The position numbers and the translations under genes were made by a program. A DNA stretch of 42,537 nt from positions 1 to 42,537 of the forward strand of contig JBAXZY010000002.1 in the NCBI GenBank assembly GCA_041670045.1. The letters run 5' to 3'. Position 1 is the stretch's first letter. Each line of letters starts with the position of its first letter. This document shows, piece by piece, positions 2,893 to 17,421 of the stretch. The DNA comes from Bacilli bacterium. Its GTDB lineage: Bacteria; Bacillota_I; Bacilli_A; RFN20; CAG-288. A model generated the notes under the pieces. It was not told the origin of the DNA and made no database searches. It saw nothing but the letters and a program-made list of their open reading frames with translations.

Positions 2893-3237
2893 TCATTCTA
2901 CTTCGATTTCCTTGATGTTCATCTCATTGCCTTGAAGAAGATGAGTGAATTCACTCTTGCAATAGGGGCAGACCCGTCCATATTTGATGGTATCATACTG
3001 TTTTCCGCAGCTATCGCATAACGTAATGGCTTTGATTGGAACAATCTTCAGCTTGGAGCCTTTCATAATCGGACTTTTGGAGCAGGCCCAGTTCCAGACA
3101 TCCTCGAAGTAGGAAGTGACAATCGTGGAGACATCCCCGATTTCAAGAGTCGTCTTCTTCACATGCTTGATGTCTTTGTCTTTAGCAAAGTCTTCTATCG
3201 TCTTAATGATTTCAAAGGCAACGCCTAACTCATGCAT
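2893..3237 (-). CDS. hypA: Hydrogenase/nickel-enzyme maturation factor HypA
   Basis: Internal start MHELGVAFEI... is the typical HypA N-terminus (MHE). Zinc motif CDSC...CPYC is present. The start overlaps the upstream stop (ATGCATGA). The 36 codons upstream in the track ORF lie inside the preceding gene. Confidence 0.85.
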   Translation of the reverse strand: MHELGVAFEIIKTIEDFAKDKDIKHVKKTTLEIGDVSTIVTSYFEDVWNWACSKSPIMKGSKLKIVPIKAITLCDSCGKQYDTIKYGRVCPYCKSEFTHLLQGNEMNIKEIEVE

Positions 3238-6085
3238 TCTTAGAAGCCTTTTTCTTTTGCTTGATGGCTTTCTTATCGACCTTGTGCTTCTTCTCACTGG
3301 CTTTTTCAGCAGCTGTCTTCTTACCGAAGACGACCTTGAAGCCACGCTTTACAACATAAGGCAATAAGGCCTTGACCTTGTCTTCAGCCTTATACATGGT
3401 GCTGGCTTCCGGATGAACTCTAAAGAGATGAATGGCATCGAAGTTGCACTTAGTGGTGCAGACTCCGCAGCCAATGCATTTGTTTTCGTCCACTACAGCA
3501 GCACCGCAGCTTAAGCAGCGCTTAGTCTCAATTGCCACCTGATCGCTAGTAAGAGTCTTATGGGCATCAATGAAGTTATGATGATAATCGATGGCTTCAT
3601 TCATGCCTTCTTCCTGACGGCCGGCATGATCGTAGGAGATGTCAGCAATATTGTTTTTATCTAAAGCCACATATTCGTATTTGTTTCTTCCAATAGTCAA
3701 AGAAGTGCCAGGCTGGACAAAACGGTGAATGGAGATAGCGGCCTTCTTGCCTTCCTCAATTGCATCAATTGCAAAACTAGGTCCAGTATAGACATCCCCG
3801 CCGACAAAGATATCGGGTTCTTCTGTCTGGAAGGTGATCTTGTCAGCCAAAGGACCTTTGGCACGATTGAAAGTAACTTTGCTGCCTTTTAGTAAGTCAT
3901 TCCAGACAATGGCCTGACCAATAGAGAAGATGACAGTCTTGCAGGGAATAGTCTTCGTAATGCTTTCATCATAGACCGGAGCAAAATGATGGTTTTCGTC
4001 ATAGACTTTCACGCACTTCTTGACGATGATGCCACTGACTTTGTTATCAGTAAGTAAAACTTCTTTAGGTGCCCAGCCACAGTTGATTTCAACCTTTTCT
4101 TCTTCAGCTTCCTGAATCTCCTGCTTAGTAGCCGGCATGATGTCTCTAGTCTCCAGACAGAACATGGAGACCTTGCCTGAAGTCAAACGGGTGGAGCTTC
4201 TTGAAGCATCGATAGCGACATTGCCGCCGCCAATAACAACTACATCACCTAATAACTTCGGAGCTTTGTCTTCTTGGATGGCACGTAAGAAATCAACAGC
4301 CGTAAAGACATTCTCACCTGTTTCCCCATTGATATGAGGAAGCTTGCCACCTTGACAGCCGATAGCAATATAGAAAGCCTTATAGCCTTCTTTTCTTAAG
4401 CTATCTAAAGTAACATCCTTGCCGACTTCGACTCCATACTTGATATCAACGCCTAAATCCTTAATAACTTCAACTTCAGCATCAATAACATTCTTTTCTA
4501 GTTTATAAGAAGGAATACCATATCTAAGCATTCCACCGGGCTTAGCGCTCTTTTCATAGATAGTAGGGTTGTAGCCTTGCATAGCTAGATAGTAAGCACA
4601 GCTTAAACCAGCAGGTCCGGCGCCGATAATAGCGACTTTTTCTTTCCAACGGCCAACATTGGAGGCAATGATAGGAGTAGGAATATAACGAGTCTCTTTC
4701 TTTAAATCCTGTTCAGCCAGGAATTTCTTAACGGCATCAATGGCCACTGGATGATCAATGGTTCCTCTAGTGCAGGCATCTTCGCATTTCTTGTTGCAGA
4801 TTCGGCCGCAGATGGCAGGTAAAGGATTTTCCTTCTTGATCAAAGCCAACGCTTCCTGATATTTGCCTTGACTGGCAAGTTTCAAATAGCCTTGAACAGC
4901 AATATGGGCTGGGCAGCTAGCTTTGCAGGGAGCCGTACCGGTTTCATAGCAATTGATGCGGTTGTTGTCACGATAGTTCTCATCCCACTTGTCTTCACCC
5001 CAATGCATATTGTCCGGAAGCTCATGCTTAGGATAATTGATAGGACCAGTCTTAGTGCAAAGCTTCTGACCTAACTTAACGGCACCGGCGGGGCAATGCT
5101 CGACACAGCCACCGCAGGCCACACAGTTCATCGGATCGACTTTAGCGACATAGGCGCTTCTTGACATATTGGGTGTGTTGAATAGCTGGGAGGTTCGTAA
5201 GGCATTGCAGATGTTGATGTTGCAGTTGCAGATAGCAAAGATCTTGTTCTTGCCATCAATGTTAGTGATCTGATGGACAAAGCCGTTATCTTCAGCTCTT
5301 TTCATAATAGCCATAGCTTCATCGTAAGTGACATAATGGCCTTTTTTAGTTTCCACACAGTAATCAGCCATATCTCCTAAGCCGATGCACCAGTCTTCGC
5401 AGTTGTCGCCACAGCCTTCACCTAATTTGGCTCGGCCATAACGGCAGGAGCAGATACCGGCTGAGATATGACCGGCATATTTCTTCAGCCAATAGGAAAT
5501 ATGTTCGATATCAATGGAGGTATTCTCCATCTTGATGGCTTTTTCAACTGGGATGACATGCATACCAATGCCAGCACCGCCCATAGGAACTAAATGTGTT
5601 ACTTTCTCTAAGGGTAAGAAGGTCATTCTTTCAAAGAACATGGCCAGTTCCGGATGCTTATCAATAGCTTCCTTTCGCATATTGGTGAATTCAGCGGAGC
5701 CAGGGACAAATAAAGGAAGGACATAATAACGGACATGAGGGGCACCTTTGATCGGACCATTGTCGTCATAGTGGTCACCATAGTTGAATTCCAATAATCC
5801 AGCATAGGACATCTGATCAAGAAGTTTCTGAACCTGCTCCGGAGTCTTCTCTTTATTACGTTTGCAGATTTGTTCAAAGGTATAAGGTGTTCTTAACTTC
5901 ATAGTTAAAGCAATATCGGCCATTTCATCAGTCATAACACATCTTAAGCCCCAGTATTCTGGGTCTTCGGAAGTTACTTTGTGCCCGATGCGGTCAGTGA
6001 CACGCTGAGCAATCTTGAGAATCTTCTTATTGGGGTTCTTCTCTCCGATGAACTCCGGCTTATAGGCTTTGGACATTTCAGGCAT
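3230..6085 (-). CDS. Multidomain Fe-S flavoprotein, GltD/NfnB-like NAD(P)H oxidoreductase with extra Cys-rich and ferredoxin domains
   Basis: CNKKCEDACTRG followed by the Rossmann motif VAIIGAGPAGLSCAYYL and a second fold VVVIGGGNVAIDASR. C-terminal CLSCGAAVVDENKCIGCGVCTTKC. N-terminal Cys clusters (CSCRYG, CNCNINIC, CVACGGCVEHCP). Confidence 0.75.
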   Translation of the reverse strand: MPEMSKAYKPEFIGEKNPNKKILKIAQRVTDRIGHKVTSEDPEYWGLRCVMTDEMADIALTMKLRTPYTFEQICKRNKEKTPEQVQKLLDQMSYAGLLEFNYGDHYDDNGPIKGAPHVRYYVLPLFVPGSAEFTNMRKEAIDKHPELAMFFERMTFLPLEKVTHLVPMGGAGIGMHVIPVEKAIKMENTSIDIEHISYWLKKYAGHISAGICSCRYGRAKLGEGCGDNCEDWCIGLGDMADYCVETKKGHYVTYDEAMAIMKRAEDNGFVHQITNIDGKNKIFAICNCNINICNALRTSQLFNTPNMSRSAYVAKVDPMNCVACGGCVEHCPAGAVKLGQKLCTKTGPINYPKHELPDNMHWGEDKWDENYRDNNRINCYETGTAPCKASCPAHIAVQGYLKLASQGKYQEALALIKKENPLPAICGRICNKKCEDACTRGTIDHPVAIDAVKKFLAEQDLKKETRYIPTPIIASNVGRWKEKVAIIGAGPAGLSCAYYLAMQGYNPTIYEKSAKPGGMLRYGIPSYKLEKNVIDAEVEVIKDLGVDIKYGVEVGKDVTLDSLRKEGYKAFYIAIGCQGGKLPHINGETGENVFTAVDFLRAIQEDKAPKLLGDVVVIGGGNVAIDASRSSTRLTSGKVSMFCLETRDIMPATKQEIQEAEEEKVEINCGWAPKEVLLTDNKVSGIIVKKCVKVYDENHHFAPVYDESITKTIPCKTVIFSIGQAIVWNDLLKGSKVTFNRAKGPLADKITFQTEEPDIFVGGDVYTGPSFAIDAIEEGKKAAISIHRFVQPGTSLTIGRNKYEYVALDKNNIADISYDHAGRQEEGMNEAIDYHHNFIDAHKTLTSDQVAIETKRCLSCGAAVVDENKCIGCGVCTTKCNFDAIHLFRVHPEASTMYKAEDKVKALLPYVVKRGFKVVFGKKTAAEKASEKKHKVDKKAIKQKKKASKNA

Positions 6086-13530: not shown

Positions 13531-14748
13531 ATGTTTTTTCTAAGCTTAGGTATCATTCTTTTAGTTGGTGGCTTAGTCGGTTTTCTTTTTCAGAAGATTC
13601 GTTTGCCGGCTCTTTTAGGTTATCTTTTATTAGGTATTCTTCTTGGTTATTTCGGTCTTGTCGATGAGGACTTATTAGCTATCTCCTCGGAAATCAGGAA
13701 GATTGCCTTAATCATCATTCTTTTAAAAGCTGGTTTATCGCTTAACATCTCTGATTTAAAGAAGGTAGGAAGACCAGCTATCCTCATGTGTTTCCTTCCA
13801 GCCTGCATGGAAATGTGCATCGTTGGTGTCCTAGGTCACTATTTCTTTGATCTCACTTTCAATGAAAGTTTCCTTTTAGGTTCCGTCTTAGGAGCCGTCT
13901 CTCCCGCGGTTGTTGTTCCTCGAATGACTAAAATGATGTCAGAAGGTTATGGCACTGATAAAGGCATACCTCAATTAATAACTGCTGGCAGTTCCATGGA
14001 TGACATTGTCATGATTGTCTTCTTTAATTCCTTCATGACCATTGAAAAAGGATCATCGGTTTCAGCGATGACCTTTTTGAATATTCCTCTTTCAATTCTT
14101 TCAGGTGTCGGAGTCGGCGTATTGATTGGTTTCTTGCTTGTTTTGCTATTCAAATATGTTCATCTCCGGGATTCATTGAAGCTATCTTTGATTATTGGAA
14201 TAGCTGCCTTATTAGTATTCTTAGAATCCTATCTTGAAAAATGGTTTTCTTTTTCAAGTCTTTTAGCCGTCATTTCTTTAGGCATGGTCATTCTGGCTAA
14301 AAGACCAGTGGCTGCTAAAAGAATCAGCCAGAAATGTGAAAAACTCTGGACCGTTGCTGAAATCTTCTTATTTGTCTTAGTTGGAGTCTCGATTCAGATT
14401 CAGTACTTCAGCAAATATATTTTGATGTCTTTAGCACTTCTTGCCTGTTCCTTATTAGTACGATCACTGGCCGTCCAGTTATGTCTTATCAAAACCAAAC
14501 TGAATCTCAAAGAAAGAATCTTTGTCGCTATTTCTTATTTACCTAAGGCTACTGTTCAGGCAGCTATTGGCGGAACCCTCTTAGATTATGGAAACTCAGT
14601 CAGCAATGATGCCATCATTGCTGCTGGCATCATCGTCTTATCAGTCTCTGTCGTCTCAATTCTCTTTACTGCCCCTTTAGCTGCTTTCAGTATGGACTTA
14701 ACCTACACAAAGCTTACTACTAGAACCTTGGAGCCTGTTCAAAGCTAA
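13531..14748 (+). CDS. Cation:proton antiporter (Na+/H+ exchanger family), second copy
   Basis: Polytopic membrane protein. N-terminal LPALLGYLLLGILLG motif. 405 aa. Confidence 0.8.
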   Translation: MFFLSLGIILLVGGLVGFLFQKIRLPALLGYLLLGILLGYFGLVDEDLLAISSEIRKIALIIILLKAGLSLNISDLKKVGRPAILMCFLPACMEMCIVGVLGHYFFDLTFNESFLLGSVLGAVSPAVVVPRMTKMMSEGYGTDKGIPQLITAGSSMDDIVMIVFFNSFMTIEKGSSVSAMTFLNIPLSILSGVGVGVLIGFLLVLLFKYVHLRDSLKLSLIIGIAALLVFLESYLEKWFSFSSLLAVISLGMVILAKRPVAAKRISQKCEKLWTVAEIFLFVLVGVSIQIQYFSKYILMSLALLACSLLVRSLAVQLCLIKTKLNLKERIFVAISYLPKATVQAAIGGTLLDYGNSVSNDAIIAAGIIVLSVSVVSILFTAPLAAFSMDLTYTKLTTRTLEPVQS

Positions 14749-15449: not shown

Positions 15450-16637
15450 TTAGTTAGTGGCTTTGAAGTTATAGATAGGTTTAATGACACTAGTAACATC
15501 AACAGTAGGCTTAATCATCTCTAAGATCTCCTTTGAATTCTTATAGGCTTTAGGAGCTTCATCCAAAGTATCAAGAGTGGCGGTAGTGGTATAAATGCCT
15601 TTCATAGATGAAGTGAATTCATTTACTGAAAGAAGCTTCCTAGCCTGACTTCTGCTAAGCCGTCTTCCCGCTCCATGAGGAGCGGAATAATTCCAATCTT
15701 TATTTCCTTTGCCAACACCTAAGATAGTTCCATCTTTCATATTGAGAGGAATAATTACTTTTTCTCCTTTCATTGCAGAAATAGCACCTTTCCTGACTAC
15801 ATTGTTTTCATCAATGTAGTTATGAACTGATTCAAATTGGTCAACTACATGCCAACCCATTTTCTCTAAAATCAATTGTGAAATCAAACGGCGGTTGACT
15901 TTAGCCCAGTCCTGAGCAATTCTCATGTCATGCAGATAATCAAGTCGGTGCTGATTAATCAAATAAGATAATTCCAAAGGAACTAATCTTTTATTTTGAT
16001 AGGATTCTTGAATTGCATCAATGGCGGATTTGATCCTTCTTTGCTGTCCTTCACTTTTCAGTAAGGAGATGACCTGTTTTATTTTTCCGTCTCTTTCATC
16101 ATTCAAAGAACAATCATCCTGGGCTTCTTCCTGATAGAGTTCCGCAATTTGTTTACCTAAGTTCCGACTTCCGGTATGAATGACTAAATAGATAGCCCCA
16201 TCCTGACTTTTATCTAATTCAATGAAGTGATTGCCACCACCTAAAGAACCTAGAGACCGATCAATCCATTTCTTATTGTCATTCAGTTTCTTATAGCAAA
16301 GGACATTTTCTAAAGAATAGTCTTTGACTATCGAATCATGAACAGTCATTCCGGAAGGGATGACATCCTTGATGACTGAGTCTAGTTTCTCTAAGTCAGG
16401 GTTAGAATCATCAATCTGGGTTACTAACATGCCACAGCCGATGTCGACTCCGACAATATTAGGTATTATCTTTTCACCTAAGTCAGCGGTAAAACCTACT
16501 ACACAGCCTTTACCAGAATGACAGTCAGGCATGATTCTGATTTTGGCATTTGAAAAAGCTTTTTGAGAAGCTAAAAGGTTTATTTGATTGGTGGCTTCTT
16601 CTTCAATTGTTTTAGCAAAAATCTTTAAATCAGACAT
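15450..16637 (-). CDS. rtcB: RNA-splicing/repair ligase RtcB
   Basis: Hallmarks MPDCHSGKGCVVG, VGVDIGCGM, GGGNHFIELD, HTGSRNLG, SAPHGAGR. AAGAGG RBS present. Confidence 0.92.
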   Translation of the reverse strand: MSDLKIFAKTIEEEATNQINLLASQKAFSNAKIRIMPDCHSGKGCVVGFTADLGEKIIPNIVGVDIGCGMLVTQIDDSNPDLEKLDSVIKDVIPSGMTVHDSIVKDYSLENVLCYKKLNDNKKWIDRSLGSLGGGNHFIELDKSQDGAIYLVIHTGSRNLGKQIAELYQEEAQDDCSLNDERDGKIKQVISLLKSEGQQRRIKSAIDAIQESYQNKRLVPLELSYLINQHRLDYLHDMRIAQDWAKVNRRLISQLILEKMGWHVVDQFESVHNYIDENNVVRKGAISAMKGEKVIIPLNMKDGTILGVGKGNKDWNYSAPHGAGRRLSRSQARKLLSVNEFTSSMKGIYTTTATLDTLDEAPKAYKNSKEILEMIKPTVDVTSVIKPIYNFKATN

Positions 16638-16657
16638 GGTTTTACCTCTTTTCTTTC

Positions 16658-16711
16658 AAAAAAAAGGATAAGACTAATTGCTCATTTAGTAGAGTAATTA
16701 ATGCTTATCCC
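16658..16711 (-). terminator. Strong intrinsic terminator between the structured RNA and the rtcB RBS
   Basis: Minus strand reads GGGAUAAG-c-AUUAAUU ... AAUUAGU-CUUAUCC (about 14 bp, one bulge, one G-U) followed by U8 (16658-16665). The rtcB ATG is only about 20 nt further on. Confidence 0.7.
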
Positions 16712-17320
16712 TTTTTTATAAACGCAGGCTTTCGCCTTACACCCGTTAATCCTGCAGTTGTTTCGGTCAATCAGGGTCCTAGCCCGAGGGCAATAGAGCG
16801 ACTACTGCTCTACTAGGATCATCTCCTAGCAAAAGGAGACTGAACTGATAATGGCACTACGGCCACTGACTTTCAGGAAACGTCGGTAAAAATTGAATGA
16901 TGCCAATTCTTGATCGGCCTTTTTCTTTATTCTTGCCGGAGATACCCCTACTCGTACCTGACTAAGACACTATAGCCTATTACTAGGCATCAACTCCGAG
17001 ACCTTGTTTTGAGTATACCTCAAGGTTTGTCCTTCGATCTCACTCGAAGGCAAGAGGCGGCCAGGAAGCTCTTGCGAGCTCATTATGTATGGCTCTTATG
17101 GTCCTATCTCAGTCATTACCTTAACTTTCAGATTCAGATGCACTGACTTCCGAAAGGTGTTTATTAGACACCTTCCTTGCCCCTTTCAAAGCAAGGCATT
17201 TGTTTCCTGAAAAAGTAGCCTTCCTCAGTCCTTATTCGGAGATCATCCAGCCGATCAGTAAGATCATCTTCAACTGGTTGCGAGTATATTATCGGTCACC
17301 CTTGCTTTTAATAATAGGTG
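16712..17320 (-). ncRNA. Large (about 600 nt) structured RNA element of unassigned family, upstream of rtcB
   Basis: Lies in the largest ORF-free gap of the window. G+C enriched (17041-17100 is 32/60 by my count, against AT-rich flanks). At least 10 local hairpins. Three GNRA tetraloops form only on the minus strand (17067-17080 GCAA, 16975-16988 GUAA, 16726-16737 GAAA). Several plus-strand A-C mismatches become G-U pairs on the minus strand. Confidence 0.6.
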
Positions 17321-17337
17321 CAGAATAATTATAGTTA

Positions 17338-17412
17338 GTGTTCCATATTGGTATGGATTTTATCGATATATTTGGTGTATTATATATCTTAAAGTGTTCC
17401 ATATTTTGGAAC
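17338..17412. promoter_or_regulatory. Twin operator-like sites in the divergent promoter region
   Basis: Exact 12-mer GTGTTCCATATT at 17338-17349 and 17394-17405. Each lies in a palindrome (TCCATAttggTATGGA at 17342-17357; GTTCCAtatttTGGAAC at 17396-17412). A minus-strand TATAAT sits at 17328-17333. Confidence 0.45.
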
Positions 17413-17421
17413 TAACTAACT

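Follow-up and report, generated by a model that had tools for sequence, protein, structure and literature searches.

A divergent ROOL RNA gene lies between a WYL-type regulator and rtcB

We analyzed positions 1 to 42,537 of a Bacilli bacterium contig (JBAXZY010000002.1, assembly GCA_041670045.1), a stretch referred to here in its whole length of 42,537 nucleotides (nt) as the window. Our subject is a structured RNA encoded on the minus strand between rtcB, the gene of an RNA ligase, and the divergently oriented gene of a WYL1-like regulator (Table 1). A sequence-only reading of the window had proposed a large ornate noncoding RNA, some 600 nt long and immediately before rtcB in the same orientation, and this our analysis upholds. 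The same reading had left the family of the RNA unassigned and thought it possibly new, and this our analysis overturns, as the RNA gives a full-length match to ROOL (RF03087). ROOL RNAs occur across several phyla, frequently within prophages and close to tRNAs but outside prophages too, and they have no known associated protein or function (PMC5737381). Just one ROOL has been studied in cells, the long noncoding RNA of Lactobacillus salivarius UCC118 megaplasmid pMP118 (LSL_1885 region), a stable RNA that reaches the abundance of 16S rRNA (PMC5643018); the structure of another, env-120, solved by electron cryo-microscopy in 2025, is a closed, hollow, RNA-only D4 homo-octamer cage about 280 Å across (PMC12286853).

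Scanning the whole 42.5-kb window against 4227 Rfam families at their curated gathering thresholds returned only two matches, ROOL and a fluoride riboswitch. The ROOL match runs from 17301 to 16707 on the minus strand, covers model positions 1-574 of 574 without truncation, and scores 167.8 bits against a gathering score of 99.1 (cmscan, E 6e-36). No other family exceeded its threshold in the RNA region, and GOLLD, OLE, HEARO, raiA, Y RNA, T-box, RNase P, tmRNA and group I and II introns gave no gathering-threshold match anywhere in the window. Only three open reading frames (ORFs) overlap the region, all on the plus strand and 41-45 amino acids (aa) long, and none reaches 100 aa. The interval 17301-16707 is the gene for a ROOL RNA, a divergent full-length member of the family, and it represents neither a leader-encoded protein nor an intron nor a riboswitch. 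What is new is one more divergent ROOL and its gene context; the RNA family itself had already been described.

At 595 nt, the window ROOL falls into the length class of its family (mean 581 nt) and has the same multistem architecture. It shares only 40-50% sequence identity with other ROOLs, and BLASTN in distant mode found nothing similar to it in 50,697 phage and 72,556 plasmid records. Both observations would fit a novel family with no relation to the large ornate RNAs described before. The empty BLASTN search, however, indicates that nucleotide similarity is useless at such divergence, whereas the covariance-model match is full-length and well over the curated threshold, and all of the conserved ROOL blocks are present, among them GUAYNAGUAG, UAUA, a GNRA-capped P-stem and UGAAAGU. 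The RF03087 match thus refutes the notion of a new family, to which we assign next to no probability. The L. salivarius RNA, itself an RF03087 member with similarity to the window ROOL at the 40-50% level, scores 130.4 bits on the same model, below the window copy, and an nhmmer profile of our own did not detect it.

The ROOL fold is kept through compensatory change

The gap that contains the RNA (16638-17421, 784 nt) had been noted as the longest ORF-free stretch; counting ORFs of at least 100 aa, no internal gap of the window is longer, and its core is richer in G+C (0.43-0.46 over 16700-17300) than its flanks (0.27-0.40). The hairpins listed in the sequence-only reading are all present on the minus strand: AGCUC-GCAA-GAGCU (17067-17080), GCCUA-GUAA-UAGGC (16975-16988), AGGC-GAAA-GCCU (16726-16737), CCUUCGA-GUGAGA-UCGAAGG (17031-17050), GGAAGGUGU...ACACCUUUC (17152-17176) and the shorter arms. 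So are the two copies each of the repeats AAGUCAGUG (16864-16872 and 17141-17149) and CUGAAAGU (16869-16876 and 17124-17131). Nine of the ten hairpins correspond to helices of the ROOL consensus; the CGGAG/CUCCG closing helix (16937-16941/16994-16998) lies outside it. The choice of strand also stood, with 16707-17301 folding at -195.4 kcal/mol on the minus strand (z -4.0; none of 100 dinucleotide shuffles was as stable) and at -166.9 kcal/mol (z -2.6) on the plus strand.

We compared the window ROOL with the family consensus and with the ROOLs of two loci described below, L037 and L123. Canonical pairs form at 121 of the 159 consensus positions (101 Watson-Crick and 20 G-U), including 11 of the 12 pairs of a long-range helix (17116-17105/16969-16958). 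Between the window and L037 ROOLs, 97 pairs are canonical in both, 65 of them changed on both sides; for the window and L123 the corresponding numbers are 100 and 39, and in all three RNAs together 85 pairs are canonical, 68 with a double compensatory change. The alignments behind these counts are model-fitted and therefore somewhat favor the structure, and the cmscan structure line does not represent pseudoknot and kissing-loop contacts. Given that the window ROOL is merely 40-50% identical to its relatives, the structure has been kept through compensatory change.

We also considered that the RNA might be a decaying, non-functional relic, for instance the leftover of an old prophage, that came to lie between the regulator and rtcB by chance. 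Few full-length members score lower than the window ROOL (168 bits, against 200-350 for most), 38 of the 159 consensus pairs are not formed (24 mismatched and 14 deleted), and a close relative of the regulator-rtcB pair, L122, has no ROOL. Its score nevertheless exceeds that of the validated L. salivarius RNA, and its long-range helices are intact. No prophage gene occurs anywhere in the window, the locus is present on four metagenome contigs with an identical RtcB protein and the same gene order, and the pairing of regulator and ROOL holds down to 29% regulator identity (L025, L123 and L135, below). With the extensive compensatory changes and the fold z-score added to the score comparison, we regard a relic as quite improbable. 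The low score and the lost pairs do mean that assembly into a cage should not be assumed for this copy.

Genes around the RNA

Table 1. Features of the ROOL locus, in order from the regulator to the end of the proposed unit. Coordinates refer to the window.
Feature	Coordinates	Strand	Basis or remark
WYL1-like regulator (tandem ribbon-helix-helix (RHH), WYL beta-barrel, WCX), 340 aa	17422..18444	+	PADLOC, Foldseek; divergent from ROOL
Palindromic putative operator GTGTTCC-N7-GGAAC	17394..17412	+	Directly upstream of regulator start codon
Putative ROOL promoter: half-site GGAACACT (17344-17337), AAC, -10 TATAAT (17333-17328)	17328..17344	-	Consensus-level prediction
Conserved CTGCACCTATT just 3' of the -10 box	17313..17323	-	Predicted transcription start region ~17319-17321
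ROOL RNA (RF03087)	16707..17301	-	cmscan, consensus pairing, compensatory changes, fold z-score
Intrinsic-terminator-like element: A-tract, long hairpin (core GGGAUAAG/CUUAUCC), U8 tract 16665-16658	16659..16717	-	Between ROOL 3' end and rtcB ribosome-binding site
rtcB (RNA 3'-phosphate/5'-OH ligase), 395 aa	15450..16637	-	Pfam RtcB, 198 bits
Orphan ORF (orf238), 238 aa	14720..15436	-	Starts 14 nt after rtcB; gene call on 4/4 contigs with the locus

The divergent neighbor had been taken for a WYL-type protein, and this identification proved sound. Residues 154-319 match the PADLOC profile of CRISPR-associated WYL proteins (E 2.1e-12), a weak Pfam match to WCX follows (E 0.0018), and tblastn with the protein matches a Fusobacterium 'WYL domain-containing protein'. 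An AlphaFold2 model of moderate confidence (predicted local distance difference test score (pLDDT) 65, predicted template-modeling score 0.50) has two N-terminal beta-alpha-alpha units, a five-strand barrel (165-220) and an alpha/beta C-terminal domain. Its top Foldseek match in the PDB, over the full length, is 6OAW (RspWYL1; E 2.7e-13), followed by PafBC, DriD and CapW. PADLOC, Pfam and the model thus combine a DNA-binding domain, an Sm-like beta-barrel and a WCX domain, as in WYL-type regulators. In WYL1, an accessory protein of type VI-D CRISPR-Cas13d systems, two RHH motifs are combined with a WYL domain and a dimerizing C-terminal domain, and the protein binds single-stranded RNA tightly (PMC6547453). 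The window regulator appears from its model to share this architecture of two RHH motifs, WYL and C-terminal dimerization, at a sequence identity of about 17%; in contrast to the setting of WYL1, the window has neither a cas gene (cas13 included) nor a CRISPR array. Since conserved candidate operators adjoin the promoters of its relatives as well, the window regulator, unlike WYL1, probably acts as a DNA-binding transcription factor.

The motifs MPDCH (MPDxH), DIGCG (DIxCG), GGNHF, HTGSR and HGAGR of the window RtcB align with those of solved RtcB structures, showing at the level of sequence that rtcB is intact and has kept its catalytic motifs. The protein scores below the NCBIfam equivalog cut-offs for both RtcB1 and RtcB2. 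Its nearest relatives (about 55% identity; thousands of clusters) are mostly prophage-encoded, which suggests that the subfamily is largely phage-borne. At five loci with relatives of this RtcB (L126-L130), the surroundings are prophage-like, with holin and endolysin genes, Tad3, SSB, methylases and terminase. Beyond rtcB, orf238 is probably the last gene of the ROOL-rtcB unit. It has no Pfam, NCBIfam or PADLOC family and no real homologue among 5.8 billion proteins; HMMER over 1.84 billion representatives gave just a 60-aa fragment and one marginal match. Its AlphaFold2 model is unusable (pLDDT 37), and the rtcB-only relatives L122 and L131 do not carry it.

The window copy differs from typical ROOLs, which are phage- or prophage-borne and near tRNA islands, in being chromosomal: ARAGORN found no tRNA gene and protein family scans found no prophage or phage gene in the 42.5 kb. 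Because ROOLs occur outside prophages too (PMC5737381), this atypical context does not speak against membership. The other genes of the window are ordinary chromosomal ones, encoding Na+/H+ exchangers, a TetR-family protein, an amidohydrolase, a UvrD-like helicase and a MatE transporter, among others. The fluoride riboswitch (RF01734; 13413-13491, plus strand; 41.8 bits, gathering score 34) lies 40 nt upstream of a Na_H_Exchanger-family gene (13531-14748, plus strand), with a TetR gene and a second exchanger gene on the opposite strand; it looks like an ordinary fluoride-responsive transporter unit.

ROOL, WYL regulators and RtcB recur together in a minority of loci

We gathered ROOL loci with a 19-base signature derived from the window locus. 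It retrieved 23 loci from viral contigs (all 19 tested were ROOL by Rfam, and most lay beside tRNA arrays), 16 from GTDB genomes (ROOL in 11) and 78 from metagenome contigs. Signature loci and loci found through proteins together formed 50 ROOL clusters at 90% identity, and we surveyed the ORFs within 3.5 kb of each ROOL, 97 of which were upstream. No Pfam family dominated: downstream of ROOL we found ABC_tran six times, RtcB three times, DUF2828/DUF7788 twice, and the 'Swiss-army-knife RNA repair' domain HAD_SAK_2 once. The most recurrent upstream family was the PADLOC WYL family, with seven proteins (one each in the window, L025 and L123, and two each in L037 and L105). Among the ORFs within the same distance of ROOLs at loci L001-L117 were also two with a cellular-type RNA-dependent RNA polymerase domain (PF05183) and one RNase PH. 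A Lachnospiraceae metagenome-assembled genome (MAG), L031, carries two different full-length ROOLs in tandem on the minus strand (2354-2880 and 2932-3566; 258 and 219 bits).

The window's regulator family is rare, with six clusters among 5.8 billion proteins, and in all six informative contexts its divergent partner is ROOL, rtcB or both. The window, as the reference (100% identity), has ROOL and rtcB. At 64% identity to the window's regulator, that of L122/L131 faces rtcB only, across a 192-nt spacer; at 52%, that of L135 faces the 5' part of a ROOL at which the contig ends; at 47%, that of L134 faces rtcB only. The regulators of L123 (42%) and L025, a Traorella MAG (29%), are paired with ROOL and no rtcB, the L123 RNA being full-length (140 bits). 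The 278-nt spacer between regulator and rtcB in L134 (273-550) holds a G+C-rich, apparently structured segment with no Rfam match at E<=0.01, which may be a different rtcB 5' leader. In L133 (88-2602), an 80%-identical regulator homologue appears interrupted, with residues 1-194 encoded at 88-669 and residues 194-236 at 2474-2602; the interruption contains an HNH endonuclease gene and a DUF1295 gene and might reflect either the insertion of a mobile element or an error of assembly. L123 and L025 each have a NUDIX gene close to ROOL, but the two are not orthologues (25% identity, E 0.009).

A second arrangement occurs in L037 (683-5917, minus strand; a rabbit-gut Clostridia MAG) and L105 (145-6526, plus strand), which were found solely through ROOL sequence and whose proteins are 85-88% identical. 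Their order, on one strand, is WYL (413 aa), WYL (306-317 aa), ROOL, two tRNA-like genes, a DUF2828/DUF7788-vWA gene and RtcB. The tRNA-like genes of L037 are called as Phe-GAA and an unusually short, 74-nt 'Leu-TAG'; those of L105 score low, and the single ARAGORN call reads the anticodon AAA. The DUF2828/DUF7788-vWA protein has no TROVE Pfam match at E<=10 and no sequence relative in the PDB; its architecture of a helical domain plus vWA presumably resembles that of Ro60. By hhalign, the window's regulator family aligns in register with the WYL and WCX domains of the two L037 proteins at E values (0.025 and 0.31) that are not significant, and the common WYL nature of the two types rests on the PADLOC matches. 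Neither type of regulator, the window's or that of L037, was found in IMG/VR.

A conserved putative operator, a predicted -35-less promoter and a terminator-like element frame the RNA

The 120-nt spacer between ROOL and the regulator gene holds AGTGTTCC in two copies. The palindrome before the regulator start codon is kept in position and sequence in L122, L123, L133, L134 and L135, and its location makes autoregulation likely. On the other strand, the putative ROOL promoter has no recognizable -35 element. A half-site (GGAACACT or GGAAC) followed after a few nucleotides by a TATAAT-like box is found before rtcB in L122 (GGAACACTAATAATTA) and before ROOL in L123 (GGAACACTTTATAAA) and L135, so that four loci, the window included, keep the same operator and -10 arrangement. 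The conserved element 3' of the -10 box has a counterpart in L135 (CTGCGCCTATT) and is recognizable in L122 (CTGTCCCTACG). From this conservation we infer that one homologous, regulator-controlled promoter drives ROOL, rtcB or both. An activator site in place of a -35 element recalls the promoters of PafBC and DriD.

Downstream of ROOL, the minus strand of 16630-16745 folds at a minimum free energy of -32.9 kcal/mol (z -4.6), and none of 200 shuffles did as well. The loop of the terminator-like element exceeds the limit of a simple hairpin scan, which did not pick it up. About 20 nt separate the end of the U8 tract from the start codon of rtcB, and between the terminator and that codon we found no promoter-like site.

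This layout, with the RNA directly upstream of rtcB on the same strand and a terminator just before the ribosome-binding site, could also be that of a cis-acting 5' leader of rtcB, riboswitch- or attenuator-like, in which a ligand or a protein gates the terminator and no free-standing RNA is made. In the closing helix of ROOL, the 3' strand (16725-16710) shares nucleotides with the A-tract at the base of the terminator hairpin (16717-16710), and an alternative pairing is conceivable. However, the overlap with the terminator core is just 2 nt, ROOLs elsewhere have no conserved downstream gene (see also PMC5737381), and the L. salivarius ROOL is a separate transcript (PMC5643018). Moreover, the regulator-linked ROOL stands alone in L123 and L025, where convergent or unrelated genes follow it, and in L122 and L134 rtcB lies behind the same promoter type without any ROOL. 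For these reasons we consider a leader unlikely, with little to choose between it and a relic.

We therefore return to a free-standing ROOL gene with a WYL-regulated promoter and a terminator, and with read-through into rtcB, which as a whole is the best explanation of the locus; we put its probability at roughly 85%. ROOL would be transcribed from the -35-less promoter, whose -10 box is abutted by the half-site. A dimer of the RHH-WYL-WCX protein would bind the GTTCC-N7-GGAAC palindrome and the half-site, and a ligand sensed by its WYL domain would switch the promoter; by analogy with WYL1, DriD and CapW, this ligand might be single-stranded nucleic acid, plausibly RNA fragments. Most transcripts would stop at the hairpin/U8 terminator (16717-16658) and leave a stable RNA about 660 nt long, and read-through would be the only evident source of rtcB-orf238 mRNA. 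If so, ROOL and the ligase would be co-induced at a ratio set by the terminator. By homology to env-120, the one ROOL for which a cage is known, the RNA may fold into a flat ROOL monomer and self-assemble into an RNA-only octameric nanocage.

Comparison with known systems

The sequence-only reading had likened the locus to the Salmonella rsr-yrlBA-rtcBA RNA-repair operon, which carries Y RNAs and is regulated by RtcR (PMC7790460). The layout does fit: both have a divergent ligand-sensing regulator, a structured noncoding RNA and rtcB on one strand, ROOL, WYL and RtcB recur together elsewhere, and L037 and L105 additionally have tRNA-like genes and a vWA protein between the noncoding RNA and rtcB. 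The likeness does not extend to the parts. No Y RNA family reached its gathering score, no ORF of the window matches Ro60/TROVE, and RtcA is absent as well. The window RNA is about five times larger than a Salmonella Y RNA and unrelated to it in sequence and structure, and ROOL, unlike the Y-RNA system, is thought to act as a protein-free homo-oligomer. The regulators differ too, RtcR being a CARF-AAA+ sigma-54 activator and the window protein of the RHH-WYL-WCX type.

Like the window ROOL, the L. salivarius RNA is intergenic and adjoined by a small regulator gene. It differs in being megaplasmid-borne and in having no rtcB nearby. LSL_1884 was considered as a WYL protein and rejected; it is a 90-aa helix-turn-helix protein. 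GOLLD, another large ornate phage and bacterial RNA that is often near tRNAs, forms an RNA-only nanocage and has an equally unknown function, is unrelated to ROOL in sequence and secondary structure and assembles as a 14-mer. In the literature searched we found no description of a ROOL between a WYL1-like regulator and rtcB and no link of ROOL with RtcB, WYL or RNA repair, although a prior mention may exist.

A possible role of ROOL beside RtcB

The synteny suggests that the cage and RtcB take part in one and the same response, to RNA damage or to phage conflict. In its fullest form, which we put forward tentatively and think rather less likely than not to be correct, ROOL would be, in a subset of Bacillota, the RNA part of a response to RNA damage or phage conflict under WYL regulation. 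Through one conserved promoter type, a WYL1-like sensor would switch on ROOL, RtcB or both, and the cage would work with or alongside RtcB, in functional analogy to the Ro60/Y-RNA-RtcB module. How cage and ligase might cooperate is speculative; sequestering or presenting broken tRNAs and decoying ribotoxins are examples.

Several observations weigh against so broad a role or against parts of the proposed regulation. WYL upstream neighbors occur in just 5 of the 50 ROOL clusters, and the other 45 have no WYL or RtcB neighbor and are mostly phage loci with adjoining tRNA arrays. The discovery of the window and L123 was not independent of the regulator, which leaves an unbiased count of WYL-linked clusters of 3 in 48, from two regulator lineages. 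L122 and L134 have the regulator-rtcB pair without ROOL. None of 58 viral RtcB loci has a ROOL within 5 kb, so the linkage is not a general property of RtcB or of phages; taken with the empty IMG/VR search, this confines the link to chromosomal modules under WYL control and thereby to a minority of ROOLs. Within the window, the promoter, transcription start, terminator efficiency and read-through of the ROOL unit are all predictions, and a stronger sigma-70-like match, TTGACA-16-TATCAT (11/12), lies at 17504-17477 on the minus strand, within the 5' end of the regulator gene, antisense to it and facing ROOL. This match may have arisen by chance, or it could serve ROOL as an alternative or constitutive promoter.

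ROOL is among the few giant bacterial RNAs with a solved, spectacular structure yet no known function, partner or regulator. For a minority of ROOLs, the gene context described here is a testable lead on regulation and function, one that stems from synteny. The window locus and its relatives offer a candidate dedicated regulator of the WYL1-like kind, a family for which binding of single-stranded RNA or DNA is known. They also offer a defined, directly testable predicted promoter and operator, and a recurrent physical link to RtcB, to which one lineage adds tRNA-like genes and a vWA protein. Should the link not be functional, the window would hold merely another divergent ROOL copy. Should it be functional, it would direct work on ROOL towards RNA damage and anticodon-nuclease conflicts, and a WYL- and RtcB-associated response would, if true, offer a first functional handle on a class of RNA that has lacked a known role since 2017.

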